The notes under the pieces were generated by a model. That model did not search any database, had not been told where the DNA came from, and was given only the letters and a program-made list of their open reading frames with translations. Positions 19,343 to 38,222 of a stretch of DNA of 64,000 nt are shown here, one piece after another (the stretch's first letter is position 1; each line of letters begins with the position of its first letter). The position numbers and the translations under genes are program-made. This DNA comes from Candidatus Omnitrophota bacterium (GTDB lineage: Bacteria > Omnitrophota > Gorgyraeia > Gygaellales > Profunditerraquicolaceae). The stretch is taken from NCBI GenBank assembly GCA_041662125.1, contig JBAZTA010000003.1:264962-328961 (forward strand), given 5' to 3'.

Positions 19343-19345
19343 TAC

Positions 19346-20248
19346 TTACCTCATCCAAAGGGTAGGGTTTAAAATCTTTTCATCTACTTGATCAAAATAC
19401 TGCGAGACTAAAGGGAGTAAATTGCGTGCCGGTTTTCTTCCCCAGCTTCCCAGATTCTCCTCTAGCTGTTCAGGTGTTTCTACCCCGATAACCAGTTTTG
19501 CCGTAGGAAATCTTTCTTTTAGATATCCCAATGCTAATTCATGTTTCGTGACATTAAGCTGTTGGGCAAGTGATTTTATTTTTTCAAGCACCGGCTTGGC
19601 AAAAGACATTTGCCCAGAAAGCTCGTTTGGATCCATAAGAATAAGACCCTGAAGAAAAACACTCCGGATATATATCTGCCGGCCCGCTTTCTCTGCCAGT
19701 TCAAAAACTCTCTGCTTCTCAAATCTGCTGTCCAGGATATTAGCAGGTAGTTGCACCATATCAAACCCGTTAATAAGCAACGCTTCTAAAGCTCTTTTGG
19801 GAGAATAAACCGAAACACCTACCTTTTTGATCTTTCCGGACTTAACAAAACTATGCAAAATCTCACCAAGGCCGTTTGGCAACTGACTCAAAAGGTCTTC
19901 TTTATGAAGCATCAATCCATACAAAGATGAAACCCCTAATCTTTCTAAAGACCTATTCAAGGCTTCAGACATGATCTGAGGATCGCAATGGTTGAGTTCA
20001 GGATTGATTTTACTGATAACTTGTGCCTCGTGCGAAATGCTCAGTTGAGAAAATGCCGTTCCCAGCATTTTCTCGCTTCCTCCATAGTCTTGTGCGGTAT
20101 CAAACTCTCTAATCCCATTTTCCCAAGCTGTCCGTATTATTTCAGTCACCCTCGCCTGGTCAGGTTGACCAGTTTTGTTGGCTACACCATACAAAAGTCC
20201 AAACTGTACGGTCCCTAACACAAAGGGATGAAAGTTTCCTGGATTCAT
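19346..20248 (-). CDS. Aldo/keto reductase
   Basis: 300 aa. 'EFDTAQDYGGSEKMLG' AKR signature region. Confidence 0.7.
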   Translation of the reverse strand: MNPGNFHPFVLGTVQFGLLYGVANKTGQPDQARVTEIIRTAWENGIREFDTAQDYGGSEKMLGTAFSQLSISHEAQVISKINPELNHCDPQIMSEALNRSLERLGVSSLYGLMLHKEDLLSQLPNGLGEILHSFVKSGKIKKVGVSVYSPKRALEALLINGFDMVQLPANILDSRFEKQRVFELAEKAGRQIYIRSVFLQGLILMDPNELSGQMSFAKPVLEKIKSLAQQLNVTKHELALGYLKERFPTAKLVIGVETPEQLEENLGSWGRKPARNLLPLVSQYFDQVDEKILNPTLWMR

Positions 20249-20263
20249 AATAAAGAATAATGC

Positions 20264-21580: not shown

Positions 21581-21597
21581 AATTAACTCCGGGTATT

Positions 21598-22635: not shown

Positions 22636-22667
22636 ACCTCAAATTTTAAATTAAAATTATTAAATAC

Positions 22668-23825: not shown

Positions 23826-23826
23826 A

Positions 23827-24828
23827 TCAGTGTGCCTCATTTTTTAGATTTTTAACCATATCGGCAAGCTCATCAAGGCTGAGGCGCTCCCGATTCAAGT
23901 CACTGCGGTACTCAAAACCACCCGGTAAAGGTTTTCCGCGTTTATATTTCGAAAAGGCTTCATCTAAATACAAAAACTGCGGCAACACAACATAATATTC
24001 CTTAAGATCAAAAGCTATGCGCGCCTCGTCTTCAGAAATCAATGTTTCATGGATCTTTTCACCAGGACGGATACCGATCGGTTTTAATCGGCACTCCGGC
24101 TCAATAGCCTTTGCTAAATCCACTACCCGCATAGACGGGATCTTAGGAATAAAAATCTCACCGCCAACAGATTCGTCCAATGCTTTGAGCACCAAATCAA
24201 CGCCTTGATCAAGTGTTATCCAAAAACGCGTCATTCGTTCATCGGTAATTGGAAATTCTTTAATACCCCGATTCTTGAGCTCTAGGAAAAAAGGGATCAC
24301 ACTTCCCCTGGACCCGACAACATTTCCATAACGCACGACTGAAAATTTTACCCGGGCGCCGCCATACGCATTCGCCGCGACAAAGAGCTTCTCAGCAACA
24401 AGTTTGGTAGCGCCATAAAGATTAGCCGGGCTAACGGCCTTATCCGTTGACAAAGCGATAACTTTCTTAACTCCAGCGTCAATGGCCACATCAACGATAT
24501 TATTAGCGCCATCGACATTGGTTCTGACCGCTTCAGTGGGATTGTATTCCAAGGCAGGTACCTGTTTCAAAGCAGCAGCATGAATAATATAGTCAACTCC
24601 TTCAAAAGCGCGGTGCATACGATTTTTATCGCGGATATCTCCGATAAAATAACGCATAGATGGATACTGTTTATCCGAGAAAATCTTTTCCATCTCATGC
24701 TGTTTATATTCATCACGGCTGAAAATGATCAGTTTTGCCGGTTTATACCGTTTGAGCACTATTTCTGTGAATTTATGCCCAAAAGACCCTGTTCCCCCAG
24801 TAATTAAAATAGTCTTATTATTTAACAT
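23827..24828 (-). CDS. pseB: UDP-N-acetylglucosamine 4,6-dehydratase (inverting), PseB/FlaA1 family
   Basis: 333 aa. 'MLNNKTILITGGTGSFGHKFTEIVL' PseB/CapD-like N-terminus. Strong SD 'AAGAAGGGG' upstream. Confidence 0.85.
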   Translation of the reverse strand: MLNNKTILITGGTGSFGHKFTEIVLKRYKPAKLIIFSRDEYKQHEMEKIFSDKQYPSMRYFIGDIRDKNRMHRAFEGVDYIIHAAALKQVPALEYNPTEAVRTNVDGANNIVDVAIDAGVKKVIALSTDKAVSPANLYGATKLVAEKLFVAANAYGGARVKFSVVRYGNVVGSRGSVIPFFLELKNRGIKEFPITDERMTRFWITLDQGVDLVLKALDESVGGEIFIPKIPSMRVVDLAKAIEPECRLKPIGIRPGEKIHETLISEDEARIAFDLKEYYVVLPQFLYLDEAFSKYKRGKPLPGGFEYRSDLNRERLSLDELADMVKNLKNEAH

Positions 24829-24916: not shown

Positions 24917-26362
24917 CTATTCCTTGATCTCAGGCTTACCTAAACCTTTTTTTTCAAAAACAAAATAGAGAATAATGCCCAAGAAAATAGGCAAAATCTG
25001 CATGCGGTAACGGCAAACGGTACCCAAATTATAACCGACAAACCCATAAGCAATTGACCAAACCACAATTAAAGAAATTGCCCATATGAAAAAGGGGGTA
25101 AATAATTCACGCCAGCGAACCTTAAAAACAGCAATAATAAATAAAATCAGTAAGACAGTGTCTTCAAGGCCAGCCATGAGCCCGAAAATATTTTTAACCT
25201 CTCCCGGCAAAGGCCTGAATAAAACCGTAAATACCCCGCGAGGGACAAAAAGAGCCAAATCTTTGAGTCCTCGGTATTTAATCTTTACAGTCACCCCTGA
25301 ATTTTCATCAATTGCAGTCTCATACGCCGGCTTATTTTCACCCACAGGATCCTTAGGATCACGAGCCAAAGCGTTATCACCGGAATCTGCTTTTTTAAAC
25401 ATTTTACCATCAGGTTTTGCTTCAAGCAGACTACCCCCGATTGAAAATGTTGTGAATCTTTTATTAGCAAAAATTGAAAGATCCTTGAACGATTTAAGAT
25501 AAAATATCTTCGTGACCCCATGAGTTGAAAACACCAATATTATGATTGAAGAAACAAAAACTAACACATAACCTATTTTTTTAAAACTATTTCTATTCAA
25601 ACACATCATACGGACTACCATTAACAAAACGGGCAAGCCTAAAATAATTCCCAGCCATAAGCGGATATATACCGAAGTGATCAACCCCAAAATTATAAAC
25701 ACGGAAGAAGAAAACGATTCAGTTCTTATTAACTTGACGACGCCATAGCTATAGACGGCTATGGCGATAAGGAGAATCGGTTCTTTGCCGATAACAGAAG
25801 ACCAAAAAAGTATCGATGGGAATAATGCAAAGACGTATAAAAGGCGCACGATATCTCTTCGCAAAAACTCAGCCGCAGCAAGATAAAAAACATAGCAGGC
25901 AAAAAGGCCGATCATTCCAAAACTTGCCTTTATAGCATGAAACGAGTCAAGGAAACTGTTACGCAGGACCTGAATAAGTAATATCACCGGATTGGATGGC
26001 CCCAGGACCTCCATCCTTCTCCATTCGCGGATATGATGCGTAGCAGCGTTAAAATACCCATATGAATCAACCTGATAATGGTGCTCGTAAAAAAGCATCA
26101 AACCAAGCATGACAAAACACTTCACCATCCAAATATAGCCGAGAGCTTTCTTATGAGCTGATGGCACAGGCCAAAAATATATCGTAACTCCCAAAAAAGC
26201 CGCCCATGCTACCCCGATCACATAATCTAAACGGATATTCTTTTGCGGTATACGTTTACCCAAAATCTCAACCAGCTTTAAAAAATGCGGCAGCGTATAA
26301 ACAAAAACTAAAAACCCGACCACTATTAACAAAATTAAAAAAAGATTATTCTTTTTCAACAC
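24917..26362 (-). CDS. Polytopic membrane protein with large soluble loop (possible Wzy-like polymerase/ligase or membrane glycosyl/acyl transferase)
   Basis: About 480 aa with at least 10 hydrophobic segments and a roughly 130-aa hydrophilic loop. No ATG near the 5' end, so GTG/TTG start at about 26362/26359 was inferred just after the upstream stop. Confidence 0.35.
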   Translation of the reverse strand: MLKKNNLFLILLIVVGFLVFVYTLPHFLKLVEILGKRIPQKNIRLDYVIGVAWAAFLGVTIYFWPVPSAHKKALGYIWMVKCFVMLGLMLFYEHHYQVDSYGYFNAATHHIREWRRMEVLGPSNPVILLIQVLRNSFLDSFHAIKASFGMIGLFACYVFYLAAAEFLRRDIVRLLYVFALFPSILFWSSVIGKEPILLIAIAVYSYGVVKLIRTESFSSSVFIILGLITSVYIRLWLGIILGLPVLLMVVRMMCLNRNSFKKIGYVLVFVSSIIILVFSTHGVTKIFYLKSFKDLSIFANKRFTTFSIGGSLLEAKPDGKMFKKADSGDNALARDPKDPVGENKPAYETAIDENSGVTVKIKYRGLKDLALFVPRGVFTVLFRPLPGEVKNIFGLMAGLEDTVLLILFIIAVFKVRWRELFTPFFIWAISLIVVWSIAYGFVGYNLGTVCRYRMQILPIFLGIILYFVFEKKGLGKPEIKE

Positions 26363-26372
26363 AACACCTTTT

Positions 26373-27413
26373 TTAGTTGTCCTTGCATAAAAAATGCCAA
26401 TATGGCAGTGTATCAGAAATAACCACACTTTTAAATGAATCCTGCAACGCGGCAATATCTTTCTTACTAAACCGTTGTTCTATACGCGTAAAAAACCGGT
26501 CATAAACATCTTGACGGATCCGCGCAAGCGTTTTTCCTCTATAGCCTTCATACAGCGGGACAGAACAACGCAAATTCATTTTATGCAACAAAGCTCCGAG
26601 TGAAATTAACGGAAGATACACGGTAATTGCGACAACACTGGTAAATACTGACCGGAAAAATTCATTTCTAACATGCGATACCGCTAAACGGACCATGGTT
26701 ACCAGGGAAAGTAAAACTTGGAAAAATCTCGGCCGGTTATCAAGTGAATAATACAAATATATCAAAAGAGCAGGTGAATAACTTTTAAGTTTTCTGACGG
26801 TTGCCAAAGCGTTAACCGGCATATGGTGCAAAACACCAAGACAAAACAGGAAATCAGCGAACGGGGTTGCAAAGGGGAGACAATTGATATCAGCCATAAA
26901 AAAAATAGCATTATCGCGGCGGCGCAGGTTCCTGCGGGCCACAAAGATCGCTTCTGAAAAATCAACAAGCACCAATTCACGGCAGGCATCCCCAAGGAAA
27001 TAACTCCAGCGGCCGATACCGCAACCTAAATCGCAGACACGCGCATGCTTCAAATCGTCAATATTGACGAGGTCAAAATATTGTGAAAACTCTTCTCTAT
27101 GCTCAGGTAAAATATCGGGAAACTGCTGCCATTCTGACCCAAAGGTAAATTGGATATCTTCCGCGAAATCAGCTGAAACAGCAGTTTTTTTAATACTGCC
27201 GGCCAGCCTTTTTTGAAGCGCAGGCGGATATTGATCAGGCTCAAGCAAGATAATAACATCATCAACAATCGGATACCTGCGATTGTTGACAATAAGTAAA
27301 TCACCTTTAAGCTCGATATTGCGGGTTCCAAAAATATCTTTCAGGCTAGCGATCTTATTGTCATAAAATAGAGTTTTTCCGGGCTTTACACTATTTTGTT
27401 TAAGCTCGTTCAT
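26373..27413 (-). CDS. Class I SAM-dependent methyltransferase with hydrophobic C-terminal extension
   Basis: 346 aa. Motif I 'VCDLGCGIGRWSYFL'. C-terminal about 100 aa hydrophobic. Confidence 0.65.
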   Translation of the reverse strand: MNELKQNSVKPGKTLFYDNKIASLKDIFGTRNIELKGDLLIVNNRRYPIVDDVIILLEPDQYPPALQKRLAGSIKKTAVSADFAEDIQFTFGSEWQQFPDILPEHREEFSQYFDLVNIDDLKHARVCDLGCGIGRWSYFLGDACRELVLVDFSEAIFVARRNLRRRDNAIFFMADINCLPFATPFADFLFCLGVLHHMPVNALATVRKLKSYSPALLIYLYYSLDNRPRFFQVLLSLVTMVRLAVSHVRNEFFRSVFTSVVAITVYLPLISLGALLHKMNLRCSVPLYEGYRGKTLARIRQDVYDRFFTRIEQRFSKKDIAALQDSFKSVVISDTLPYWHFLCKDN

Positions 27414-28329
27414 GCAATTCCTTTATGGTGCGTTTAATGCCATCTCTCAGAGAAAGCGACGGCGACCAATGAATAAGGTTTTTTAAGTGAGTTACGTCAG
27501 CATAGCTTTGCGGTTGAGCAGGTTCATCACTGCGCATAGGCCGGGCGCCAAATTTTAACTTCTCTCTATCGCCACCAAGCAACTTCCAAAAAAGCAAAAC
27601 AAAATCTTTAACTTTAATAACAGTGCCGCGGCCTAAGTTGACTACGGTTGATCCTTCTACAGAATTGCTTATCTTCAGGAGGCCTTCTCCTGCTTCTGAA
27701 ACATGGATATAATCACGATAGTGTTCACAGGGGCTTAATTGCACATCCTTATTCAGAAGAAACGACTGATATAATTCATTGATGAGAGATCCTGGCCTCT
27801 GCCCTGCTCCGTACACATAAAACGTCCTCACATGAACATATGTTTTTCCATACGCAGAAGCACTTTTTAATCCAAACTTTGCAACTTCAATCTTGGCCTT
27901 TGCGTAATTAGTAAGGCGTCCTTGAGGGAGAGAATCTTCGCACAAAAGGCCGGTGCGTGAACCATACTCATTCATGGAACCGATGAACACAAATTTCTTC
28001 AGGCCAAGCCGGAAGAGCGTTTCTATCAAGGTCTTTGACGCCTGAAGATTCTCACCTAAATGCATAGCAGATTCGGGCAAAGCCATATCTCCCCAGCCCG
28101 AATGGATAAAACAATCCGGCAGGCCAATTCGTTCAACCTTTGATTTAATATCACGCTCGCTTAAATAATCAAGGGTGTGACACAAAAATTCTTTCGCTGG
28201 CGCCTCACTCTTTCCCGGGAGCTGATTTGAAAAACAACTGACTTCTCTACCGGCATTTTTAAGCAGGCGAGCCAAAACACTGCCGATGAAACCTCGAGAA
28301 CCGGTTAACCAAATTTTATGTATTGGCAT
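27400..28329 (-). CDS. NAD(P)-dependent epimerase/dehydratase-family (SDR) sugar-nucleotide reductase/epimerase
   Basis: 'IWLTGSRGFIGSVLARLL' Rossmann motif. 'YAKAKIEV' YxxxK. Confidence 0.7.
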   Translation of the reverse strand: MPIHKIWLTGSRGFIGSVLARLLKNAGREVSCFSNQLPGKSEAPAKEFLCHTLDYLSERDIKSKVERIGLPDCFIHSGWGDMALPESAMHLGENLQASKTLIETLFRLGLKKFVFIGSMNEYGSRTGLLCEDSLPQGRLTNYAKAKIEVAKFGLKSASAYGKTYVHVRTFYVYGAGQRPGSLINELYQSFLLNKDVQLSPCEHYRDYIHVSEAGEGLLKISNSVEGSTVVNLGRGTVIKVKDFVLLFWKLLGGDREKLKFGARPMRSDEPAQPQSYADVTHLKNLIHWSPSLSLRDGIKRTIKELHERA

Positions 28330-28341
28330 ATCTTTTGTGCT

Positions 28342-29280
28342 TCACCCCAGCCCTAACTGACGCATCACCTTCGGATGGTCGATTTCAAACTGATCGGCAT
28401 GAGGACGTAAACACGCATCATCTTTTGTGCGAGTCACTAGTACGACATTACCAGGATTGATTACCTGTTGGGCCTCAACCGCCAGATGCAGCCAGGAACC
28501 GTTCACACTTTTTGAATCATCAAGCACCAGAAGTTTCTTGGTACGCCGGACGTTGTTTAAAATCGTACTCCAATTGACCGGAAGCATGGCATTGACAGAA
28601 AAAAGCGTTGCGTCAAGACCATGTTTTTTTAGGTCATGGTAAAGCAAGAGCCCCTGCGGAAAGGAAAAGTTAAAACAGGCAATCGTCAGGCCACTGCCAT
28701 GGGAATATTGGAATATTTCGGCGTTTTCATCACAGGAAACACCCTCAGTTGTTTCCAAAACCTCCTGGCGGCATAGGCGCTGACTGATACCGATAATACG
28801 AAAACCGGGAGCAATGAGATGTTTACTCAAAATGAATTCCGCGTCAGCTTTATTCGTGATCGCATACCCGGGAATACGGGCAATGGAACAAAAATCAGCA
28901 AAATTATTCAAAGAGGATTGCGGCCCTTCATAGCCGCTATCAACAACGACATTGACTATAGTAAAAGAACTTCGAGCCTTCCTGCCCCTGACCAAGTTAT
29001 AGGTATTCACAAGCTGGTCGATACCCAGGAGCAGGAAATCCTGCTGTTTCATGAAAAATATTGATGAAACCCCGTTCAGCATTAAACCAAACCCCGTCCC
29101 CACAAGGGTATTTTCGCAATTAGGGGTATTCAAAACAAACTGGCCGTCTTGATTTTTGAGGCCTTTGGTCAGGCCTCCGATACAGCTTCCGGCGGCGATA
29201 TTTTGCCCAAACATGACTAATGGCTTAATTTCAGAAACTCGCTGCCGGATCAATCCATTGATGTGCGTAATATAATTCAT
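28342..29280 (-). CDS. Thiamin-diphosphate-dependent E1 component beta-subunit-like protein (transketolase-like Pyr/C-terminal domains)
   Basis: 312 aa. N-terminal region aligns in pattern with pyruvate/acetoin dehydrogenase E1-beta ('...FGQNIAAGSCIGGLTKGL...NTPNCENTLVGTGFGLMLNG'). ATGA-coupled to the E1-alpha-like gene. Confidence 0.65.
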   Translation of the reverse strand: MNYITHINGLIRQRVSEIKPLVMFGQNIAAGSCIGGLTKGLKNQDGQFVLNTPNCENTLVGTGFGLMLNGVSSIFFMKQQDFLLLGIDQLVNTYNLVRGRKARSSFTIVNVVVDSGYEGPQSSLNNFADFCSIARIPGYAITNKADAEFILSKHLIAPGFRIIGISQRLCRQEVLETTEGVSCDENAEIFQYSHGSGLTIACFNFSFPQGLLLYHDLKKHGLDATLFSVNAMLPVNWSTILNNVRRTKKLLVLDDSKSVNGSWLHLAVEAQQVINPGNVVLVTRTKDDACLRPHADQFEIDHPKVMRQLGLG

Positions 29281-30206
29281 CCAAGCTCCTTGCGTACGTC
29301 CGCCAGGACGTTTTTCGCCAGCGTCTTTAGAAAATCATTTTCAAAATGTTTAGTCAAAACATATACGGGATCTCCCTCTGTCTCCTCAATGACCGGCCAA
29401 TCAGATAATTCTACCGTGGGAGCTGCCCCCGCATGATAATTAATATATTTTCCTTCAGGATACTCATCGGTCTTCATACGCCAGTCACCAAGGGTGCGAA
29501 GGGAAACTTCAATGATTACCGGAGTTTTTTCAGCCAGTGCTTTTGCGCGCGCTTTCTCCAGCAGCGGGATATATTCAAAAACGTCATTTCCTTTAATTAA
29601 TTCATATGGTATTTTAAAAGCAGAGGCAAAACGATCGAGCGCTATATCGCATCTGCGCTCATGGATCTCTGTTGCCAAGGACCAATTATTGTTCTCGACA
29701 ATAATCAATGCCGCAGTAGCATATGTCTTCATCATCAGTAAGCTCTCTTGGAAAACCCCTTCTTCAATAGCCCCATCACCGATGACAACGATAGCCACAC
29801 CTTTTGTTTTCTTAACGGTGTTTCCTAAGGCTACACCGGTAGCAACAGCCATTTGGTTCCCCAGGATACTTGAGGTATACAAAACTCTTTTCTCCTCATT
29901 GTAAAGGTTCATGCATCCCAATTGGCCGCCAGCCTCTCCTGAATCAAGGCATAAGTATTCAGCGATCTTTTGTTTTAATGAAGGGCTGAGCGCCAAATTA
30001 TAATGGATATTCCGGTGCGTCAATAATAACCAGTCGTTTTCTTTCATTATAGAAGCCAGCGCTACCGCTATAGCCTCATGCCCTAATGCCAAGTGAACCG
30101 GGATTTTAAATTGTTTTTGTTTATTTCCCTGGTTTACCAGCATCTGGCAGAACCGAAGACGCAAGACTTCCCGAGCATTTTTTTTATTATCTTTTTTAGT
30201 AGGCAT
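29277..30206 (-). CDS. Thiamin-diphosphate-dependent E1 component alpha-subunit-like protein
   Basis: 309 aa. 'GHEAIAVALASI' (GQEA-like). ThDP-binding 'GDGAIEEGVFQESL...ENNNWS'. Confidence 0.7.
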   Translation of the reverse strand: MPTKKDNKKNAREVLRLRFCQMLVNQGNKQKQFKIPVHLALGHEAIAVALASIMKENDWLLLTHRNIHYNLALSPSLKQKIAEYLCLDSGEAGGQLGCMNLYNEEKRVLYTSSILGNQMAVATGVALGNTVKKTKGVAIVVIGDGAIEEGVFQESLLMMKTYATAALIIVENNNWSLATEIHERRCDIALDRFASAFKIPYELIKGNDVFEYIPLLEKARAKALAEKTPVIIEVSLRTLGDWRMKTDEYPEGKYINYHAGAAPTVELSDWPVIEETEGDPVYVLTKHFENDFLKTLAKNVLADVRKELG

Positions 30207-30213
30207 AGGTTTT

Positions 30214-31110
30214 TTATTTTTTATTACGTTTTAACCCTAAAAAATCGCTCACTGATTGAAGGCCAACCGTAAGCCCAATTGAAGGAGAAAACTTAAGCAG
30301 GCGTTTTGCTTTTTCATCGCTGACAATCCGCACGCTTACCTGTTGCGGAGTTTTTTCTACAACACGGGGGTTGCGAGCAAGCAACTTTTTTGCTGTTTCG
30401 ATACAATCACCAAGGCTAACTAGTTCCTGCCCCTGAACATTAATGATCTCAAAGCCCTTCAGGCCGATCGAAGCGATTACCGCAGCCGCAATATCCGTTA
30501 CATGAATAAAACGCCGCCCTGTTTTCAGAGATCCGACTGACACCTCATCTTGAGTCGCAACCGTATTTAAAAGTGATTCGACAGCTGACCAGTTATCTTT
30601 TCGCGGCCCATAGACAATACCAAAACGTAATATCGTAACCGGGCAGAATCCACGCAGATACTTCTGGCGAAGGTTAGCTTCGCTGACTAACTTCGAGAGA
30701 GCGTATTCAGAGCTCAAACGCGCGATATCAATCACATCATCTTCTTTTTTTGCCACACCATCTTCAAAACGGTCATAGACCCATTCAGAAGAAGCAAAAA
30801 TAAATTGTTTAGCTCCTTTTGCCTTTGCCGCATCCATAAGATTAAGCGTGCCCATGACATTAACATCAAAACAGGTATACGCCTTATCCTTACAATCCGC
30901 GTCGCGCGATATTGCTGCTAAATGCACTACAGCATCAACGCCCTCAGGTATGTTTTCCGCGATTTTTCCCGAACGGATATCCGCGACAGAACATCCTGCT
31001 TGAGCTGTATCAACTAAATCTACTCCAACGATCTCAATACCTTGAGCGCGCGCAAGACGTAAAACTTCTTTCCCGATAAAACTTCCACAACCAGTTACAA
31101 AGATTTTCAT
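30214..31110 (-). CDS. NAD-dependent epimerase/dehydratase-family protein
   Basis: 298 aa. 'IFVTGCGSFIGKEVLRLA'. 'YALSKLVSE' YxxxK. Confidence 0.7.
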   Translation of the reverse strand: MKIFVTGCGSFIGKEVLRLARAQGIEIVGVDLVDTAQAGCSVADIRSGKIAENIPEGVDAVVHLAAISRDADCKDKAYTCFDVNVMGTLNLMDAAKAKGAKQFIFASSEWVYDRFEDGVAKKEDDVIDIARLSSEYALSKLVSEANLRQKYLRGFCPVTILRFGIVYGPRKDNWSAVESLLNTVATQDEVSVGSLKTGRRFIHVTDIAAAVIASIGLKGFEIINVQGQELVSLGDCIETAKKLLARNPRVVEKTPQQVSVRIVSDEKAKRLLKFSPSIGLTVGLQSVSDFLGLKRNKK

Positions 31111-31139: not shown

Positions 31140-32231
31140 CTACTTTTTAACGCTTTCAAATAATCGATCCCACTGCAAAAGATACTGTTCTTGGCTATAC
31201 TCGGTTTCTGCGATTTTAAGGCCGGCAAGGCCTGCAGCCTTTCTTGCATCCGCGCCAAGGATCAACTTTTCCAATTTTTCATACCAGTCCTGGTTATTCT
31301 TGCAATATAACGGCATCCCGATTTTCTCCATGATGCGCGTGTACGTTGGTATAGCAGAAACAACGCAGGGCATACCCATTCTCCAGAAAAACAATAATTT
31401 GTTTTCCGGTTTACCGCGCATAAGCGGATCAGCGGTGTCCAGAGGAATAACAGCAATATCGCATCCGGTTATCAGGCGGGAAACGTCTTGCTTATTCCAC
31501 TGATAGAGATACACCAAAGAATCATTACCGCTTACCGTATTGGCATGATACTCTGAGCCAAAAATGCGCTGCAGCTGTTTAACCATGGAGACCTTTTTAA
31601 AACGATTCATGTATCGGCCATATTCCAGGTCGGTAATGACATATAAAGACAACGGGTATTTCGCCTTGAGTTGTATCAATACATCTTTTATCCCCGCCAA
31701 TGCTGCCGCATTCTCAGGCCGGCCTTCCCAAACAAGTTTTATCTTTTCCGGTTGCGCGTAATCATTTTTAACGCGGCTTGCGATCTTTTGATGGAATTCC
31801 AAGATAACATGGACATTCCGGCAATATTCCTGAATATCGTGCTTCTGTTCGAGAGTAGAACACATAACCGCGTCGGCGCGCCTGCACATGTCTTTAATGG
31901 CATCAGCGTAATTCAGCCGTAACGACCGGTGTTCTCCGACGCAGAATTTGGCAAAACCCCGCAAAGCTCCTTTGAGGTCAAAGCCGGATACCGCTAAATA
32001 GGAATCTACAAGCATATAAATAAGCTTGGTTTTTCTCCTTGGGAAACGGTTCCAAAAGCTTAAATCGACCTGAGGAGTCAAGACCACAATATCATATTCT
32101 TTATTCGGGTCAGCTATTTCAAATGGAATATTTCGTTTACGCGCGTAATAAACGAAATTCCTCAAGTCAAAAGGATGTAACGATGGGCTTCTGAATGGCA
32201 CATAACCAATGCTAAAACCGGATAAATCCAT
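31140..32231 (-). CDS. Hypothetical protein, possible GT-B-fold glycosyltransferase
   Basis: About 363 aa. C-terminal 'CDIAVIPLDTADPLMRGKPENKLLFFWRMGMPCVVSAIP' resembles the GT1/GT4 donor-binding region. Start uncertain; the ORF-track Met at 32309 would overlap hddA by 50 nt. Confidence 0.35.
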   Translation of the reverse strand: MDLSGFSIGYVPFRSPSLHPFDLRNFVYYARKRNIPFEIADPNKEYDIVVLTPQVDLSFWNRFPRRKTKLIYMLVDSYLAVSGFDLKGALRGFAKFCVGEHRSLRLNYADAIKDMCRRADAVMCSTLEQKHDIQEYCRNVHVILEFHQKIASRVKNDYAQPEKIKLVWEGRPENAAALAGIKDVLIQLKAKYPLSLYVITDLEYGRYMNRFKKVSMVKQLQRIFGSEYHANTVSGNDSLVYLYQWNKQDVSRLITGCDIAVIPLDTADPLMRGKPENKLLFFWRMGMPCVVSAIPTYTRIMEKIGMPLYCKNNQDWYEKLEKLILGADARKAAGLAGLKIAETEYSQEQYLLQWDRLFESVKK

Positions 32232-32259
32232 AGGTATTTTATCGCAGCAAGACTGCGCT

Positions 32260-33252
32260 TTAAACCGCCGATTGATCGTAATAGGTGATCCGCGTTCCTG
32301 CGTTCTCAAATTTAAAAGGAAGGCGATAGAGATTATTCAGGGCATGCGCAACTGCCGGCTGTTTTTTCGGTTCTACAAAAAACAGCAGAAATCCGCCTCC
32401 GCCTGCTCCAAGCAGTTTACCTCCCAGCGCCCCTGCCGATAAAGCACGGTTATAATACCCATCGATTTCCGAAGAAGAAATTTCATCGGTTATACTCTTT
32501 TTTAAAAGCCACCCTTTATGCAATAAACGCCCAAATTCGCGTATATCAGCGCCGCTGGAAAGGATCTCACGCAAAGGAGCGACTAAATCCCTCATTGCAA
32601 CAAGCACATGCCGCTTCTCTTGGGTCTTGGTGTTTTGAACAGATAAAATATCGTGCGCATCGCGCTTTATCGCGGTATAAAACAACATCAGATGATTTTC
32701 AATAGTTTCTTTTATTTCAGGGCGGTAAAAAACCGGGTCGACCGAAACAGTGCCGTCAGTATGAAAGGTAAAGACATTAAGGCTCCCATACGCGGCAGCG
32801 TAATGGTCTTGCTTGCCGATAGTGCGCTTCAAAACATCGATCTCAAGGCGTGAAGCCATTCCGGCTAAGACGCCTTTGGTTACCATTTTCCCTTTTAATG
32901 CAAAAAGCGCATGCAAGAGTCCTACGGCGAAAGAACTCGAAGACCCTAAGCCGGTATTAGCAGGTATATCGGCAAACGTGGAAACTTCAAGCGGAATATC
33001 TAAATCCATCATCTTCAAGGCTTCACGTACGATCGGATGTTCGATATCTTCAATCTTATCCTTAAACTCGACCTTACTCCAATTGATACGGAACTTATAT
33101 TCTGAAATAGCAGTCTGGCGTTTTACCGCCACATAAATATACTTATCAATACCGGTGCTGATGACCTGCCCTTCTTCTTTTAAATAAAACTCCGGCAAAT
33201 CGGTGCCACCGCCGGCAAAACTGATTCGAAAAGGAGTCCTTGATAGTATCAT
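32260..33252 (-). CDS. hddA: D-glycero-alpha-D-manno-heptose 7-phosphate kinase (GHMP kinase, HddA type)
   Basis: 330 aa. N-terminus 'MILSRTPFRISFAGGGTDLPEFY' matches the HddA/fucokinase-type GHMP kinases. ATP-binding 'NTGLGSSSSF'. Confidence 0.75.
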   Translation of the reverse strand: MILSRTPFRISFAGGGTDLPEFYLKEEGQVISTGIDKYIYVAVKRQTAISEYKFRINWSKVEFKDKIEDIEHPIVREALKMMDLDIPLEVSTFADIPANTGLGSSSSFAVGLLHALFALKGKMVTKGVLAGMASRLEIDVLKRTIGKQDHYAAAYGSLNVFTFHTDGTVSVDPVFYRPEIKETIENHLMLFYTAIKRDAHDILSVQNTKTQEKRHVLVAMRDLVAPLREILSSGADIREFGRLLHKGWLLKKSITDEISSSEIDGYYNRALSAGALGGKLLGAGGGGFLLFFVEPKKQPAVAHALNNLYRLPFKFENAGTRITYYDQSAV

Positions 33253-34469
33253 GCGCTCACCAAATTATCAAATGCTTCAGATACATTTTTAAATACATAC
33301 CGCGGCCTTTCATCCGGTTGGAGTTTTTTTAATTCATCGACTGGCCCCGTATAAACACAGGCGCATCCGGCCTGATACGCTGCCTGGCAGTCCCGGGAAT
33401 CATCTCCAATAAAAAAAGTTTTATCTAACCGAAAGAGCCATTTACGGGAGGCCTCAAAGAAAAGCCCTGGTTGGGGCTTACGGCAAAAACATTTCTCTTC
33501 CCAGTGGTGCGGGCAAACAAAAATATCTATAATAGGGATCCCTTGATCTTCAAGAGCCCGCTTCATTCGTTTATGAATATCATCAACTGCTTCCCGCGTT
33601 ACCAACCCTCGGGCTATGCCTGCCTGGTTAGAAATGACAATAAACGAATAACCGGCTAAACTGAGCTTTTTCATTCCTTCGACATTTTCCCGCATGAATG
33701 AAAAAGCATCCCATGAAGACACATATTCACCGCGCAAAGCCTTATTATTTATGACTCCATCACGGTCAATCAGCAGGATTTTCTTTGGGCATAAATACTT
33801 TTGGGCCACCTTCAAACGATCCATGTCTGAGATACTGTAATACGCATCCAAAACGAGCATCCCAGCCACTTCTCCCGCCGATACCAACTTGTTTATTATA
33901 TCAGAAAAACTTACCTTTGAACAAGTATAATATTTGAATATTTTCTTACTGACAACCATATACCCCAGCTCAACCAAATCCAATCCTTGAGCCTGGCGGG
34001 ACGTATCATAAGCTTCTACAATCCCGCATTCTCCCAATCGAATATTGCCGTTTTCTTTAGGCGTAACTATAAAACTAAGCAGCTTTTTGTGCTGATTGTA
34101 AAACGATACGCTTTTTTTTAAGCTAAAGACGAGGAAATTATCACTATACAAAAGTAAAAAATGTTCCTGGAGCATATCCCGGGCTTCAAAAAGCCTTCTG
34201 CCGGTCTCCCATTCTGCCGGCCCATGAGAATAGAGTATCCTCAATCCCAGTTTTTCTCCATCTCCGAAATAATTACGGATCTGCTCTCCCAAATACCCTG
34301 TCATCAAAAGAATTTCGCTAATACCGTTATCTTTAAGCTGCTCCAGAAGATACTGTAAAAAAGGAACGCCGTTAATCATGACCATCGGCTTAGGCATCGT
34401 GTCTGTTATCGGGCGTAACCGTACCCCTAATCCGCCGCAAAATATAGCCGCCTGCTTAGGAGAAACCAT
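33249..34469 (-). CDS. Bifunctional heptose-1-phosphate nucleotidyltransferase (HddC-like) / D,D-heptose 1,7-bisphosphate phosphatase (GmhB-like HAD) fusion
   Basis: 406 aa. N-terminal 'AAIFCGGLGVRLRPITDTMPKPMVMINGVPFLQYL' sugar-1-P nucleotidyltransferase. C-terminal 'ILLIDRDGVINN' HAD motif I. Confidence 0.7.
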   Translation of the reverse strand: MVSPKQAAIFCGGLGVRLRPITDTMPKPMVMINGVPFLQYLLEQLKDNGISEILLMTGYLGEQIRNYFGDGEKLGLRILYSHGPAEWETGRRLFEARDMLQEHFLLLYSDNFLVFSLKKSVSFYNQHKKLLSFIVTPKENGNIRLGECGIVEAYDTSRQAQGLDLVELGYMVVSKKIFKYYTCSKVSFSDIINKLVSAGEVAGMLVLDAYYSISDMDRLKVAQKYLCPKKILLIDRDGVINNKALRGEYVSSWDAFSFMRENVEGMKKLSLAGYSFIVISNQAGIARGLVTREAVDDIHKRMKRALEDQGIPIIDIFVCPHHWEEKCFCRKPQPGLFFEASRKWLFRLDKTFFIGDDSRDCQAAYQAGCACVYTGPVDELKKLQPDERPRYVFKNVSEAFDNLVSA

Positions 34470-35343
34470 GTTTTTTCCTTAATTCCTTGATTGTTTCTTT
34501 AATACCTTTTTCAAGCGGCATCAAAGGTTTCCAACTTGTTTTACCGCGCAAGCGTGAAACATCCGCCCAAAACCCGTCTTTACCATTACCATTTGTTTTC
34601 TCCGGTAATTCACCTTTGTAGCCTGCGGCCTGGGCAACATACTGGCAAACTCGGACAACCGGCGTTTGGACGCCTGAACCTATATTAAAAACACCGTTTA
34701 TGCCTTCAGCCTCAATCAAAGCCTTTATTGCCAGAGCTACATCAGAAACATGAATAAAATCACACACAGTGTTTGGATTCTTAACTACCGGTTCCTTCCC
34801 TTTTGCAAAAGCCGCATAACATAGGGGTATCAATGAAGTTTCTCTTTGTCCGGGGCCATAAACAAAAAACATCCTTCCCCAGATAAAATTAACATTCCGC
34901 TGACGTGATAAACTCTCCCCTACCATTCTTACACTTGTTTTAAAAGAAGCAAAGAGGCTTACTTCCTCAGGAATTTGATCCTCTTTTACAGGGCCGTTGA
35001 GATTTCCATACTCCCAACACGTACCCGCCGAGAAAATCTTTTTACACCCGTTTAAGGTGAGGTATTCAAACAACAAAGCGCTTATAGTAAAGTTTTCCAA
35101 ACAGCGTGCGAAAGAATAGTCAGGCAACCCTTTCCAGGCCAAATGACAACAAGCTTCAGGAGCAAAATCCAAAACAGATTTTCCCCAAGCCGAGATATCG
35201 GCCAAATCCGCCTTAAGAGAGGTGACTTTTCTATTGGGGATAGAGACTTCATTTGTGTCCAGCAAAAGCAGTTCATGGCGTGATAAAAGAGGGACAAGGT
35301 GTTTTCCGATAAATCCCGTTGCTCCCGTGATTAAAATACGCAT
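34456..35343 (-). CDS. NAD-dependent epimerase/dehydratase-family reductase (RmlD/GDP-fucose-synthase-like)
   Basis: 295 aa. 'ILITGATGFIGKHLVPLL'. Paralogous to 41669..42580 ('LAW...GTCxEYG'). Confidence 0.65.
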   Translation of the reverse strand: MRILITGATGFIGKHLVPLLSRHELLLLDTNEVSIPNRKVTSLKADLADISAWGKSVLDFAPEACCHLAWKGLPDYSFARCLENFTISALLFEYLTLNGCKKIFSAGTCWEYGNLNGPVKEDQIPEEVSLFASFKTSVRMVGESLSRQRNVNFIWGRMFFVYGPGQRETSLIPLCYAAFAKGKEPVVKNPNTVCDFIHVSDVALAIKALIEAEGINGVFNIGSGVQTPVVRVCQYVAQAAGYKGELPEKTNGNGKDGFWADVSRLRGKTSWKPLMPLEKGIKETIKELRKKHGFS

Positions 35344-35354: not shown

Positions 35355-35915
35355 TTAAAAAGTATTTTTCGCTTTCGAAACTATCTGTGGGTCAAAATCA
35401 GGATAACTGCGGTCTTTTTCAGAAATAACACGGGGTTCCACAGGCCATGTAAACTTGAACATAGGATCATTATAACGCAATCCTTTATAGGCTTCTGGAA
35501 CATAATATTCAGACATGTAATACAAAATCGAGGTATCGTCTTTAAGCGTTAGATAACCATTCGCGCAGCCTGCAGGAAGGTGCAGGCTCACAGGCTCCTC
35601 TGCATTCAGCTCAACCGATATCCATTTTAGAAAGGTAGCCGAATCTGGCCTTAGGTCGACAATAATATCATAGATAGCGCCGGAAATGCAGAGCATGGTT
35701 TTATGCTCAGAATAGGGTTTAAGCTGATAATGCATGCCCCGCAAGGTATGCGACTTGCTGTTCTGGGAAACATTGGTCTGCAGGATCCTTGCTTCCAATC
35801 CGTTGCTCTCAAATTCTTTCTTGCAGAAATGCCTGAAGAACATACCCCGGCTATCTTTAAACGGCTCTGCTTCGATAAGAAAAACTCCCGGGATTTTTTG
35901 TTTATAAAATTTCAT
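35355..35915 (-). CDS. NDP-4-keto-6-deoxy-sugar 3,5-epimerase (RmlC family cupin)
   Basis: 186 aa. 'GVFLIEAEPFKDSRGMFFRHF' RmlC signature region. Confidence 0.75.
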   Translation of the reverse strand: MKFYKQKIPGVFLIEAEPFKDSRGMFFRHFCKKEFESNGLEARILQTNVSQNSKSHTLRGMHYQLKPYSEHKTMLCISGAIYDIIVDLRPDSATFLKWISVELNAEEPVSLHLPAGCANGYLTLKDDTSILYYMSEYYVPEAYKGLRYNDPMFKFTWPVEPRVISEKDRSYPDFDPQIVSKAKNTF

Positions 35916-35917: not shown

Positions 35918-37165
35918 TTAGAGTGAAATAGTGTACGGCTCATGAGGCAACGGTATAATGATCTTACCGTGAAAATGATACTTGTTCTTTAACAGTGCTA
36001 AAATTTCAGATTTAAAGTTCCATGCCAACAAAACAATTGTATCGGGCTTTAAAGCAAAGGCTTCTTGCGGGGAGACGATCAGAATATTTGTCCCTGCCGT
36101 ATAGGTATTATGCTTCAAGGGGTTCTGGTCAGCGATACAAACCAAATATTCATTATTGATCGCGCAATAATTAAGCAGTGTTGAGCTGCGTGCTGAAGCG
36201 CCATATCCAATGATAGTTTTTCCTGTTTTGAATTCTGCATCCAGCAATTTGGTTAATTTCTTACGATGTGCCAAGCAATCGCGCGCAAACGCCTTCCACA
36301 GTGTCAATGTATTTAACCCTATTTCTTTCTCACAGAGGATCTTTTGTTTCAAACCCTTTGAATGGGCTTTTTTCTTGTCGTCATGGGTAAAATAGACCAC
36401 CAAAGAACCGCCGCTGATCGGACTTTTCATGAGGTCATAAACCGCTAAACCATGCTGCCTGAGCAAAAACATAATGCTCTTGAGCGAAAAATAGAACAAA
36501 TGTTCATGATAAATAGAATCATACTGCAGGCCGTTTACAATCTCTTGAGCATAATGAAACTCTATCGCACCAACCCCCTCGCAGCCCAGGCAGCATTTTA
36601 TCCCTGCAATAACTTCATGGATTAAAGCAACATGAGGGATAACATTACGGGCAAAAACAAAATCTGCCGCGCCTTGGGTTGCAACAATCTTATGAGCGAC
36701 CGTTTCATTAAAGAATTCTGCCTGCGTCGGTATGCCCTGCTTTCGAGCAAGAGATGCGATATTCTCGGCAGGATCTATACCTTGAACCTTACAACCCTGT
36801 TCCCGGAATGCTTTTAAGAAGGTACCGTCATTACTGGCAATTTCCACAACAAAAGGTTTGTGTGATTTTAAGTGTTTTTTCGCCGCTTGGAAGAAAATAC
36901 CTGCATACTCCTTTGCAGTGGCAGATGTGCCGGTCACCCAAACATAGTGTTTAAACAAGAGCTCTGGATTAACGGTCTGGGTCAACTGAATAGTAGTACA
37001 ATGAGCGCATCGGCAAAGCGCAAGCGCAAATTTTGGCAGTTCTCTAGAAAGGTTCTTGCGAAGGGTGTTCGCAGGAGGCTGCGCGCCTAAATCAAGAAAT
37101 GTTTTGATCAAACCACTTTTACAGATACGGCAGCGCGTGATCGATTCCGATAACTTTTTTGGCAT
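35918..37165 (-). CDS. NDP-hexose C-methyltransferase (TylC3/NovU-type, zinc-ribbon + class I MTase + C-terminal domain)
   Basis: N-terminal 'CRICKSGLIKTFLDLGAQPPAN' matches the CxxC...LDLG.QP.AN start of the C-methyltransferase family. Start trimmed to 'MPKKLSE' to avoid overlap. Confidence 0.65.
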   Translation of the reverse strand: MPKKLSESITRCRICKSGLIKTFLDLGAQPPANTLRKNLSRELPKFALALCRCAHCTTIQLTQTVNPELLFKHYVWVTGTSATAKEYAGIFFQAAKKHLKSHKPFVVEIASNDGTFLKAFREQGCKVQGIDPAENIASLARKQGIPTQAEFFNETVAHKIVATQGAADFVFARNVIPHVALIHEVIAGIKCCLGCEGVGAIEFHYAQEIVNGLQYDSIYHEHLFYFSLKSIMFLLRQHGLAVYDLMKSPISGGSLVVYFTHDDKKKAHSKGLKQKILCEKEIGLNTLTLWKAFARDCLAHRKKLTKLLDAEFKTGKTIIGYGASARSSTLLNYCAINNEYLVCIADQNPLKHNTYTAGTNILIVSPQEAFALKPDTIVLLAWNFKSEILALLKNKYHFHGKIIIPLPHEPYTISL

Positions 37166-37169
37166 GCTT

Positions 37170-38222
37170 TTAGGCTTCTTCCTGATCTTCAATGCTATAT
37201 CGCAGCTCGTTATCAAGCTGGCGCGACTGAAGCATATACTCCAGCTGTTTTAAACGGTTAGTCATTCTACCCCTGAATTGATCTTCATTGAATTTAACTT
37301 TCTTGAAAAACTCAACCAGCTCTTCTCCGCCTCTGATTAAATCCCATTCAGGCTTAAAATAATCTTTCAAAACTGTCAATATCTTCTTAAAACTGACACG
37401 GTATGTCCGGGAATCTTTCCCGTGCTCGCCGGTAAAAATAAGTTTACTCCCCTTTACGGCCTTCTGCGCTGCTTCCCCAAGGTCTCTGACCGTAAAATTG
37501 CCGTTAGGGATACCGACATTAAATGATTGATTCGCAACCAGGTCTTTTGGCGCTTCTAACCCCGCGATAAAAGCACTTGAAACATCCCTGATATGCACCA
37601 CCGGCCTCCAGGGTGTTCCGTCGCTTTTAATCTCAATCTTACCCGTCGTGTAAGCACACCCTACCAGGCTGTTATAAACAATATCGCAGCGCAGCCGCGG
37701 GCTTGCCCCAAAGACAGTTGATGGACGAAAAGCAACAACTACAAAATCCCGGGTTCCCAGCTCCCGCAGCTTCAATTCAGCAAGCCATTTTGTTTTCGCA
37801 TAGACCGTAATAGGATTCTTTTCACTTGTATCTTCATCCAGCTCGCCTTCTACATTTGAGACCCCATACATACTCTGGGATGATGAATATATAAAGCGTT
37901 TAACTCCCGCCTTTTTTGCTAAAGCAGCTAAGGAAACCGTCGCATGAAAATTTATTTCTTCAGTCAAACGCGGTTCCAACGCGCCTAAGGGGTCGTTAGA
38001 AAGCCCGGCTAAATGGATAACAGCATCAAAACCTTCAACATCCCCCAACACAATATCCCGAATATCTTTCCTGATCATGGTATATGCATGCTTTGCCGGA
38101 AACAGGCTGTTTTGGGCGTAATAATCAACATCATACCCAACAATGTCGTAGCCCTTCTCGATCAACATTCCTGTTAATACACTCCCAATATATCCTCGGT
38201 CACCCGTAACCAGAATTTTCAC
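37170..38222 (-). CDS. NAD-dependent epimerase/dehydratase-family protein (GalE/WcaG-like)
   Basis: 350 aa. GTG start with SD 'GAGGT'. 'ILVTGDRGYIGSVLTGML'. 'YAKTKWLAE'. Paralog of 53447..54454. Confidence 0.7.
   Translation of the reverse strand: MKILVTGDRGYIGSVLTGMLIEKGYDIVGYDVDYYAQNSLFPAKHAYTMIRKDIRDIVLGDVEGFDAVIHLAGLSNDPLGALEPRLTEEINFHATVSLAALAKKAGVKRFIYSSSQSMYGVSNVEGELDEDTSEKNPITVYAKTKWLAELKLRELGTRDFVVVAFRPSTVFGASPRLRCDIVYNSLVGCAYTTGKIEIKSDGTPWRPVVHIRDVSSAFIAGLEAPKDLVANQSFNVGIPNGNFTVRDLGEAAQKAVKGSKLIFTGEHGKDSRTYRVSFKKILTVLKDYFKPEWDLIRGGEELVEFFKKVKFNEDQFRGRMTNRLKQLEYMLQSRQLDNELRYSIEDQEEA

Follow-up and report, generated by a model that had tools for sequence, protein, structure and literature searches.

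A divergent E1-derived thiamin diphosphate enzyme pair linked to heptose genes in an Omnitrophota glycan cluster, a candidate for sugar C-branching

Sugar-branching enzymes and the Omnitrophota locus

Three superfamilies of enzymes that depend on thiamin diphosphate (ThDP) are recognised to add acyl branches to sugar ketones: the YerE-like enzymes of the decarboxylase superfamily, encoded in lipopolysaccharide (LPS) clusters, the 'αKADH2' pairs of E1α- and E1β-like proteins from actinomycete antibiotic clusters, and split transketolases, for which the role is proposed only (PMC12247030). The αKADH2 pairs occur in the aldgamycin, kosinostatin, avilamycin, paulomycin, everninomicin and kibdelomycin pathways and branch their sugars at C3 or C4; one member, KbDH-α/β from kibdelomycin biosynthesis, has been tested in vitro and couples pyruvate to ketone sugar analogues, and there are no experimental structures (PMC12247030). 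Genetic evidence for the addition of a two-carbon (C2) branch comes from pau11 and from avilamycin (PMC4425429; PMC4802897), and for avilamycin and paulomycin the proposal is that glycosyl transfer comes first and the unit is attached later (PMC4425429). An in silico survey, as it is cited in PMC12247030, counts about 120 αKADH2 biosynthetic gene clusters, which may or may not include the family described here. In this work, we analysed a 64,000-nucleotide stretch (the window) of contig JBAZTA010000003.1 from a Candidatus Omnitrophota bacterium, in which positions 27400-31110 encode an E1α/E1β-like pair (module 1) of a divergent family, and we propose this pair as a candidate ThDP carboligase acting on a heptose-derived nucleotide sugar.

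A preliminary description of this window had reported the pair as the centre of a module flanked on both sides by short-chain dehydrogenase/reductases (SDRs), with no E2 or E3 components in the window, and had interpreted it as the source of a branched-chain sugar. Four open reading frames (ORFs) on the minus strand fill 27400-31110 exactly, transcribed in the order SDR, E1α-like, E1β-like, SDR (Table 1), and the ThDP motif quoted for the α gene, GDGAIEEGVFQESL, was found at residues 143-156 of its product. The reported ATGA junction is also present, with the TGA of α overlapping the ATG of β, so that translation of the two subunits is coupled; an AAGGAG Shine-Dalgarno sequence lies upstream of the junction, and the same 4-nt overlap is found in 21 of 35 scorable related loci. 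With over 1,100 homologues for either of the E1-like subunits, the genes are real. Pfam analysis of the 58 longest ORFs in the window (at least 150 aa, two reverse-strand shadow ORFs being left out) detected no lipoyl, 2-oxoacid_dh or Pyr_redox domain, and no E2/E3 domain was found in the Pfam-annotated related loci of the module 1 family designated L001-L008.

Module 1 resembles the αKADH2 systems AviB1/AviB2, AlmDI/AlmDII, Pau11/Pau12 (= Plm8/Plm9), EvdU5/EvdS3 and KbDH-α/β in that adjacent, separate E1α- and E1β-like genes lie without E2/E3 in a sugar cluster beside SDRs expected to form keto sugars, and by analogy the expected chemistry would be the attack of a ThDP-bound acyl anion on a sugar ketone to give a tertiary alcohol. 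The known pairs differ in acting on 6-deoxyhexose- or pentose-derived sugars in actinomycete antibiotic clusters, and they are described as highly similar to pyruvate dehydrogenase (PDH) E1, with Pau11 and Pau12 at 325 and 345 aa; in contrast, the subunits of module 1 have 309 and 312 aa, its β subunit has neither a Pfam match nor an equivalent of His128, and the uncultivated bacteria and archaea that carry it encode it together with heptose activation in their surface-glycan clusters. Judged by size and domain scores, a second E1 pair in the window (module 2, 51391-53436) looks closer to the αKADH2 pairs than module 1 does. The preliminary description had cited AviB1/AviB2 and AlmDI/AlmDII as establishing addition to nucleoside diphosphate (NDP)-4-keto sugars; the precedents themselves, together with Pau11/12 and KbDH, are published (PMC4425429, PMC4802897, PMC12247030), and it is the acceptor that was overstated, as addition in avilamycin and paulomycin is proposed after glycosyl transfer, and branching can take place at C3 or C4. 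The YerE-like enzymes (YerE, ErwE, JanthE, PpYerE) share with module 1 the proposed type of reaction on a nucleotide-activated 4-keto sugar and a location in surface-glycan clusters of non-actinomycetes; they differ in being single chains with TPP_enzyme_N/_M/_C domains, of the acetolactate synthase superfamily, whereas module 1 is of the split E1 type. The literature was also searched for links of E1 or transketolase genes to heptose or to sugars of the caryophyllose type; caryophyllose and erwiniose are made with YerE-like enzymes and not with E1 pairs.

Divergence of the two subunits and the His128β position

The α subunit matches the E1_dh family of Pfam over profile positions 6-222 of 300, and not Transketolase_N; transketolase models are reached only at E ~1e-5. 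Its sequence contains GDGAIEEG...VENNN, and the GDG...ENN site for Mg and diphosphate is intact (fitting GDG-X(25-30)-NN). In other respects the subunit is distant from characterised enzymes, as it scores 134.7 bits against TIGR03182 (cut-off 393.85) and matches human PDH E1α in the PDB at 1e-13. All 119 of 119 family members keep the His of the HL motif, the Arg of the HR motif, the GDG and, in ENN, the second Asn. The canonical α loop 'TYR..GHS', which carries a second catalytic His (His271 in Geobacillus stearothermophilus, His263 in human), is replaced by the family-specific TLGDW...GK.INYHAG, of which the His (His258 in module 1) is likewise invariant (119/119) and falls within one residue of the canonical loop His in a MAFFT alignment, so that it may or may not be its counterpart.

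The β subunit is more divergent. It has no Pfam match, is labelled 'hypothetical protein' by NCBI, and is only weakly recognisable from its sequence, through NCBIfam PRK09212 (9e-10; 37.9 bits, where the cut-off is 321) and PDB entry 1um9_B (1e-13). An AlphaFold model (AF2) of the subunit, built from 46 family sequences, has a pLDDT of 94.1 and a pTM of 0.92, and when this model was searched with Foldseek the top 15 matches were all E1β chains, with TM-scores of 0.75-0.83 at 14-19% identity. The E1β subunits of branched-chain and pyruvate dehydrogenases rank first, followed by DXS and then by a split transketolase (6yaj). The predicted fold is thus that of E1β, and the low rank of the split transketolase, together with the lack of a Transketolase_N match in α, sets module 1 apart from split-gene transketolases.

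Residues were numbered from HMMER alignments that anchor the canonical pair of module 2 on human E1. The equivalents of the ThDP-activating Glu59 (in TPNCEN) and of the stacking Phe85 are invariant in 120/120 β sequences, the activating Glu remaining so down to 32% identity. In contrast, the column of His128β, for which the GPQHS of the window's own canonical pair served as reference, holds Ser in 115 of the 120 sequences, with Ala in two others and His in the remaining three, and module 1 reads GPQSS, with Ser122 at this position; among diverse members, 45 of 46 have Ser or Ala down to 32% identity. A first MAFFT alignment of this region was discarded because human E1β was misplaced there, and the HMMER alignment agrees with the recount. 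His128β is the proton donor for the reductive acetylation of lipoate and is conserved in all known E1s (Pei et al. 2008, PMC2663715); in the E1 of G. stearothermophilus it also orients pyruvate, and the H128A and H128N variants decarboxylate poorly (PMC2663715).

Judged from these sequences, the ThDP machinery of the pair is intact and strongly constrained. With the E1s of complexes (PDH, branched-chain 2-oxoacid dehydrogenase and acetoin dehydrogenase; 1w85, 1um9, 1ni4) module 1 shares an α PP domain with GDG...NN and a β PYR domain with the activating Glu and stacking Phe, in a predicted fold that superposes at a TM-score of ~0.8. It differs from them in the Ser at His128β, the replaced α loop, the absence of E2/E3 partners from the window, scores far below the family cut-offs and structural alignments at 14-19% identity. 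The E1 likeness first noted for this pair is borne out as to type, with a divergence far beyond what had been implied. Because the His128β equivalent is lost and no E2/E3 is found in the window or in L001-L008, we conclude that the E1-derived pair is not a complex-bound E1. Divergence this great and the loss of one catalytic His would also be compatible with a catalytically dead pair that acts as a scaffold or regulator. Dead enzymes usually lose cofactor-binding and activating residues, however, and here the ThDP- and Mg-binding residues and the activating Glu are invariant over ~120 sequences per subunit, which makes this alternative exceedingly improbable.

Each subunit has ~1,200 homologues in a 90%-clustered collection, falling into ~100 clusters at 50% identity. 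A phmmer search with β detected 694 of the 1.84 billion representatives of the full library, 102 of them at E ≤1e-30, indicating a family that is small and isolated from ordinary E1β. Bacterial carriers include Omnitrophota, Nitrospirae, Desulfobacterota (Desulfobacteraceae), Planctomycetes, Acidobacteria, Saccharibacteria and other members of the Candidate Phyla Radiation (CPR), Chloroflexi, Lentisphaerae and Proteobacteria (Magnetococcales, Alphaproteobacteria); archaeal carriers include Thaumarchaeota (Nitrosotalea, Nitrosopumilales), Methanosarcinales and Asgard archaea (Promethearchaeota). One carrier, Magnetospirillum sp. SS-4, is a cultured isolate, and in its locus (L027) the pair is accompanied by a kinase, a C-methyltransferase, RmlC and radical-SAM genes. 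A branching system of this sort had been expected to be very rare outside actinomycete antibiotics, a view that does not hold for a gene family of ~1,200 members in bacteria and archaea, and branching enzymes of the YerE type are a familiar part of LPS clusters (PMC12247030).

The JGI and NCBI names of α, pyruvate/acetoin dehydrogenase or ThDP-dependent enzyme, would fit an ordinary catabolic E1 for pyruvate, acetoin or branched-chain substrates whose E2 and E3 are encoded elsewhere in the genome and whose location among sugar genes is incidental, and the E2/E3 scan of the host covers the 64-kb window. This explanation is close to refuted by the Ser at a position where all known E1s conserve His, by scores far under the curated E1 cut-offs and a β subunit without a Pfam match, by the small number of representatives that β detects, and by a sugar context that is kept in 46 loci of distant phyla. 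These phyla include CPR bacteria, which have a minimal metabolism.

Conserved heptose context and the proposed reaction

Related loci were collected by exact protein look-up, which gave six, and by a scan of GTDB genomes with two β-specific peptide patterns, which gave 41 species genomes; the scan is a lower bound, and 46 non-redundant loci enter the counts. Gene presence was scored by tblastn and by strict clustering, the latter counts being lower bounds because the heuristic ORF caller gave spurious antisense ORFs in the GC-rich loci L008 and L049. E1α is found in 46/46 loci by tblastn and in 39/46 by strict clustering. The SDR upstream of E1α, referred to here as the partner SDR, follows at 42/46 and 31/46, respectively, with a median identity of 54%, the tblastn count including paralogue cross-hits such as that in L045 at 30%; it is the commonest gene directly upstream of E1α. 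After it, the gene most frequently linked to the pair encodes an HddA-like kinase (36/46 and 32/46), and the remainder of the conserved set consists of an RmlC-type epimerase (35/46 and 26/46), a Cj1427-like SDR (33/46 and 22/46, median identity 60%), a 295-aa SDR (32/46 and 22/46), a C-methyltransferase (29/46 and 25/46), an HddC-GmhB fusion (27/46 and 15/46) and GmhA (19/46 and 14/46). The recurring order is Cj1427-like SDR, C-methyltransferase, RmlC, 295-aa SDR, HddA, in some loci a CmcI-type methyltransferase and adh_short, then the partner SDR, in some loci a methyltransferase and a second RmlC-like gene, E1α and E1β. The association of an E1-type ThDP pair with nucleotide-sugar genes, first noted for this window, is therefore kept in 46 loci from about a dozen phyla, which weighs far more than one window could, and the conserved context points to heptose.

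The flanking of the pair by SDRs on both sides, as first described, is correct for this window and is lineage-specific, as the upstream SDR is the genuine partner. Orthologues of the downstream SDR occur in 4/46 loci (L005, L011, L014 and L033); of the 30 hits obtained for it by tblastn, most are paralogues, at a median identity of 26.5%, and were rejected as orthologues. Its nearest paralogues in the window, at 41669-42580 and 34456-35343, are ~29% identical, and its best PDB match is MoeE5 (8e-22), with a weak match to GDP-fucose synthase. The downstream SDR is thus a lineage-specific accessory, a paralogue of the putative C4-reductases of the cassette, and possibly a ketoreductase for the new branch. 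The partner SDR has GxGxxG and YALSK motifs and an Asp at the end of β2 (IVGVDL), suggesting that it may bind NAD, and its best solved relatives are the C4-epimerase-type enzyme 6zl6 (3e-18) and MoeE5. C4-epimerase-type relatives work through a transient 4-keto intermediate, and the partner SDR would make or handle a keto sugar.

The best PDB match of the Cj1427-like SDR is 6vo6/6vo8, which we take to be the Campylobacter jejuni C4-dehydrogenase Cj1427. The function of Cj1427 itself is documented in PMC10680097. By its sequence, the 350-aa SDR is a putative nucleotide-heptose C4-dehydrogenase that would supply a 4-keto intermediate, so that two putative keto-sugar-forming enzymes, this protein and the C4-epimerase-like partner SDR, co-occur with the pair. 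A 6-deoxyhexose acceptor formed by a neighbouring dehydratase had been suggested at the outset; this is not supported, as the SDR in question best matches 6vo6 and the likely acceptor is heptose-derived. The cassette matches the logic of the C. jejuni capsular heptose pathway (Cj1427 C4-dehydrogenase, Cj1430 epimerase, Cj1428 reductase), in which GDP-heptose activation is followed by an SDR C4-dehydrogenase, an RmlC-type epimerase and an SDR reductase. That pathway contains no ThDP enzyme and no C-methyltransferase, whereas the keto-heptose here would additionally be C-methylated and C-acylated.

Taken together, our analysis suggests that the pair is a ThDP carboligase of the αKADH2 kind that adds a C2 unit to a keto sugar derived from a nucleotide-heptose, a reading to which we assign a probability of roughly 0.55; the broader statement, that the pair carries out ThDP carbon chemistry without E2/E3 on a nucleotide sugar of heptose origin, is very likely. 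The αKADH2 logic fits because the ThDP site is intact, the His is lost, no E2/E3 is found nearby and linkage to keto-sugar SDRs is tight. In the proposed pathway, GmhA, the HddA-like kinase and the GmhB/HddC fusion would yield the activated heptose as a sugar nucleotide, and the Cj1427-like SDR, the partner SDR or both would introduce a ketone at one ring carbon, of which C4 is the most likely. The central genes would encode an α2β2 ThDP enzyme of 2-oxoacid dehydrogenase E1 descent that has given up its role in a lipoyl-E2/E3 complex. On its ThDP, a small 2-oxoacid (pyruvate being the most likely) would be decarboxylated, and the resulting acyl-anion equivalent would attack the sugar ketone to give a tertiary alcohol whose two-carbon branch is an acetyl group. 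Reduction of the branch carbonyl by the downstream SDR would, in this lineage, leave a 1-hydroxyethyl group for the adjacent methyltransferase to decorate. The identities of donor and acceptor, the site of attack, the sequence of the steps and the parts played by the two SDRs are inferred. The preliminary description is hence confirmed in what it observed and partly supported in what it made of it.

Several points weigh against this proposal. Because Ser replaces His128β, the donor is uncertain and could be a different 2-oxoacid or an acyloin. The α loop with the second catalytic His is remodelled, and the INYHAG His may or may not take the place of that residue. Some loci, L027 and L045 among them, lack the partner SDR. 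The co-located C-methyltransferase, epimerase and reductase presumably use the 4-keto intermediate as well, and for this reason the pair may work on another intermediate or at another position. The family members are known from sequence and predicted structure, and they are set beside AviB1/B2, AlmDI/DII, Pau11/12 and KbDH by gene arrangement, size and domain scores.

Some of these points would suit an enzyme of the same class, in the same pathway, with another carbon chemistry: transfer of a hydroxyacetyl unit in the manner of transketolase or of a longer acyl group, use of an acyloin donor, or attack away from C4, for instance at C3 or at a carbonyl of the heptose side chain, giving a chain-extended or differently branched higher sugar. 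The Ser at His128β and the remodelled α loop alter the donor pocket, DXS and split transketolase are among the structural neighbours, and relatives of the module 2 cassette carry a split transketolase (L050). Genes for B12-dependent radical S-adenosylmethionine (SAM) enzymes often follow E1β, a hint of further carbon chemistry. ErwE-type enzymes accept C4-C6 hydroxy-oxoacids, and αKADH2 enzymes branch at C3 or C4 (PMC12247030). However, the known αKADH2 examples all give C2 branches from pyruvate (PMC12247030), there is no aldolase for a longer oxoacid donor among the conserved neighbours, and α matches E1_dh and not Transketolase_N; we regard such a chemistry as unlikely. Less probable again is a stand-alone, non-oxidative 2-oxoacid decarboxylase that forms no C-C bond on the sugar and would instead supply the aldehyde or acyl building block of a non-carbohydrate decoration, or remove CO2 from a 2-oxoacid carried by a sugar. 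The retention of the ThDP site with loss of the E2-directed His would suit such an enzyme, as would the wealth of decorating methyltransferase, aminotransferase and formyltransferase-like genes in the cluster. The tightest linkage, however, is to a keto-sugar-type SDR and to heptose-activation genes rather than to acyl- or aminotransferases, and acyl carriers, CoA-ligases and aldehyde dehydrogenases are not among the conserved neighbours.

The C2-branching proposal can be extended, at present as a tentative and rather doubtful suggestion, to an unrecognised and probably old lineage of E1-derived carboligases without lipoyl-directed chemistry that, with an NAD-dependent SDR, gives a C-branched nine-carbon sugar derived from heptose, C- and O-methylated and spread by horizontal gene transfer through the surface glycans of CPR bacteria, Omnitrophota, Nitrospirae, ammonia-oxidising Thaumarchaeota and Asgard archaea. 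To our knowledge, a class of C-branched nine-carbon sugars of that kind has not been described in any glycan.

The wider glycan cluster and the meaning of the family

Features of the two heptose-linked cassettes are collected in Table 1. Among the cassette proteins, none reaches the cut-off of an E1-, heptose- or branching-specific NCBIfam equivalog; RmlC alone reaches its own.

Table 1. Features of the module 1 cassette and of the second heptose-linked cassette (47028-57574), in window positions
Positions	Strand	Feature	Evidence or remark
26373..27413	minus	SAM methyltransferase, 346 aa	PF13649 + PF08241; 14-nt overlap with downstream SDR
27400..28329	minus	Downstream extended SDR, 309 aa	PF01370 5e-27
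28342..29280	minus	E1β-like subunit (PYR domain + C-terminal domain), 312 aa	PRK09212, 1um9_B, predicted fold
29277..29280	minus	ATGA stop/start overlap of α and β	junction GGATGAATT
29277..30206	minus	E1α-like ThDP (PP-domain) subunit, 309 aa	PF00676 2.8e-30
30214..31110	minus	Partner extended SDR, 298 aa	PF01370 8e-32; GxGxxG, YALSK
31140..32309	minus	389-aa ORF, possibly GT-B glycosyltransferase	faint PF13692, E = 0.004
32260..33252	minus	HddA-like GHMP kinase (heptose-7-P kinase type)	PF00288 + PF08544; NF049969 2.4e-44, below cut-off
33249..34469	minus	HddC-like nucleotidyltransferase fused to GmhB-like heptose-1,7-bisphosphate phosphatase	PF00483 + HAD; NF006506 1e-42, NF049965 1e-25
34456..35343	minus	Extended SDR, 295 aa, putative C4-reductase	PF01370 8e-32
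35355..35915	minus	RmlC-type 3,5-epimerase	PF00908 1.6e-56; TIGR01221 156.4 bits vs 155.75
35918..37216	minus	NDP-sugar C-methyltransferase (TylC3-type architecture)	PF08421 + PF08484
37170..38222	minus	Cj1427-like extended SDR, 350 aa	best PDB match 6vo6/6vo8, 2.6e-36
47028-48812	minus	ALS-type ThDP protein	TPP_enzyme_N/_M/_C; best match JanthE 8rph 1e-107
within 47028-57574	minus	adh_short, methyltransferase	second cassette
50381-51379	minus	dTDP-glucose-dehydratase-like SDR	second cassette
51391-52455	minus	E1β, module 2	canonical in domains
52471-53436	minus	E1α, module 2	canonical in domains
53447-54454	minus	Cj1427-like SDR	second cassette
54461-55039	minus	GmhA	second cassette
55045-56571	minus	HldE-like, reversed domain order (adenylyltransferase N-terminal, PfkB kinase C-terminal)	second cassette
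56576-57574	minus	SDR	second cassette
ALS, acetolactate synthase.

Some of the genes around the pair are particular to its lineage. Orthologues of the 346-aa methyltransferase (59% identical) and of the 389-aa ORF between the kinase and the partner SDR (62% identical) were found only in L005, the closest relative of the window. A CmcI-type methyltransferase (PF04989, ~245 aa) accompanies the pair in 27/46 loci, often directly after E1β (for example L001 4153-4902, L003 4164-4886 and L045 11041-11778); it is absent from this window, and the window and L005 have the 346-aa methyltransferase and the downstream SDR in its place. Just downstream of the 346-aa methyltransferase gene lies a 512-aa ORF (24917-26455), the L005 counterpart of which is near a Wzy_C protein and which may encode a membrane polymerase or ligase. 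Genes for a B12-binding radical-SAM protein and for paired SPASM radical-SAM proteins are present at 2776-4275, 9349-10737 and 12283-14300, 14-26 kb away from the pair; the same three gene types lie directly downstream of the E1β-like gene in several distant relatives (L003, L009, L027, L036, L040 and L046) and may serve further C-methylation or rearrangement of the branched sugar.

The second module implied by the preliminary description exists at 50381-54454 and belongs to a different and much more canonical E1 lineage. It keeps His128β and the α His of the 'GHS' type, and its β subunit scores 321.3 bits against PRK09212 (cut-off 321). The two modules were rejected as paralogous SDR-E1α-E1β trios, given identities of 30% for α and 25% for β, and the SDR upstream of the second pair is a paralogue of the Cj1427-like SDR of the first cassette (39%), not of its partner SDR (26%). 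Immediately upstream of this pair is a Cj1427-like SDR, preceded by GmhA and an HldE-like protein, and the cassette is conserved in order, free of E2/E3 and heptose-linked in Schekmanbacteria, Syntrophales and other lineages, where it also contains a further ThDP enzyme that is either of the ALS type or a split transketolase. The ALS-type protein of the window matches JanthE (8rph), a YerE-like, ketone-accepting carboligase, ahead of true acetohydroxyacid synthases (~1e-85) and falls below every NCBIfam acetolactate synthase cut-off; it is probably a third sugar-branching enzyme of the cluster. One glycan cluster would then hold three candidate sugar-branching ThDP systems, and with a second E1 pair beside a Cj1427-like SDR and a JanthE-like protein, the cluster as a whole seems devoted to C-branched sugars. 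A PhyH-type non-haem-iron dioxygenase gene comes after the E1 pair in certain relatives of either module (L001 9922-10665; L052 13548-14237), recalling AviO2 of avilamycin biosynthesis, a non-haem iron enzyme reported to act with AviB1/AviB2 (PMC4425429).

The 58 major ORFs of the window all read from the minus strand, their junctions are short or overlap, and each 2-kb bin has a negative GC skew. The entire 64 kb looks like a single co-directional glycan super-cluster. A nonulosonic-acid gene set of the pseudaminic/legionaminic-like kind occupies 14313-24828, with a NeuB-type synthase, PIG-L deacetylase, formyltransferase-like proteins, WbqC, CMP-sugar cytidylyltransferase, aldo-keto reductase, class-III and DegT aminotransferases and a PseB/Polysacc_synt_2 dehydratase. 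Each heptose cassette has its own NDP-sugar C-methyltransferase (PF08421 + PF08484; 57571-58821 and 35918-37216), the two being paralogues. In combination with a carbamoyltransferase (60364-62229) and some ten further SAM methyltransferases, they imply a very heavily decorated glycan. For the ORFs at 42616-45270, 24917-26455, 39503-40756 and 8182-9318 (884, 512, 417 and 378 aa), Pfam gave no family at E = 1. The SDR at 63307-63975 was rejected as a truncated gene, as it runs off the end of the window.

The general idea that a ThDP E1 pair can branch a sugar was already established. What is new here is an E1-derived lineage, divergent and unannotated, that goes with heptose pathways in the surface-glycan clusters of bacteria and archaea, most of them uncultivated; its phyletic spread, its link to heptose and its natural replacement of His128β are the points of specialist interest. 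As the β subunit is labelled a hypothetical protein, routine annotation misses these systems. The naturally occurring Ser for His128β offers a ready test of which E1 residues serve decarboxylation and carboligation and which serve lipoate acylation. If the proposed function is true, the family would provide a compact set of new ketone-accepting carboligases for the synthesis of chiral tertiary alcohols. It would also extend αKADH2 chemistry from actinomycete antibiotics to heptose substrates and cell-surface glycans, and carry it to CPR bacteria, Omnitrophota, Thaumarchaeota and Asgard archaea, organisms whose envelopes are essentially unstudied.

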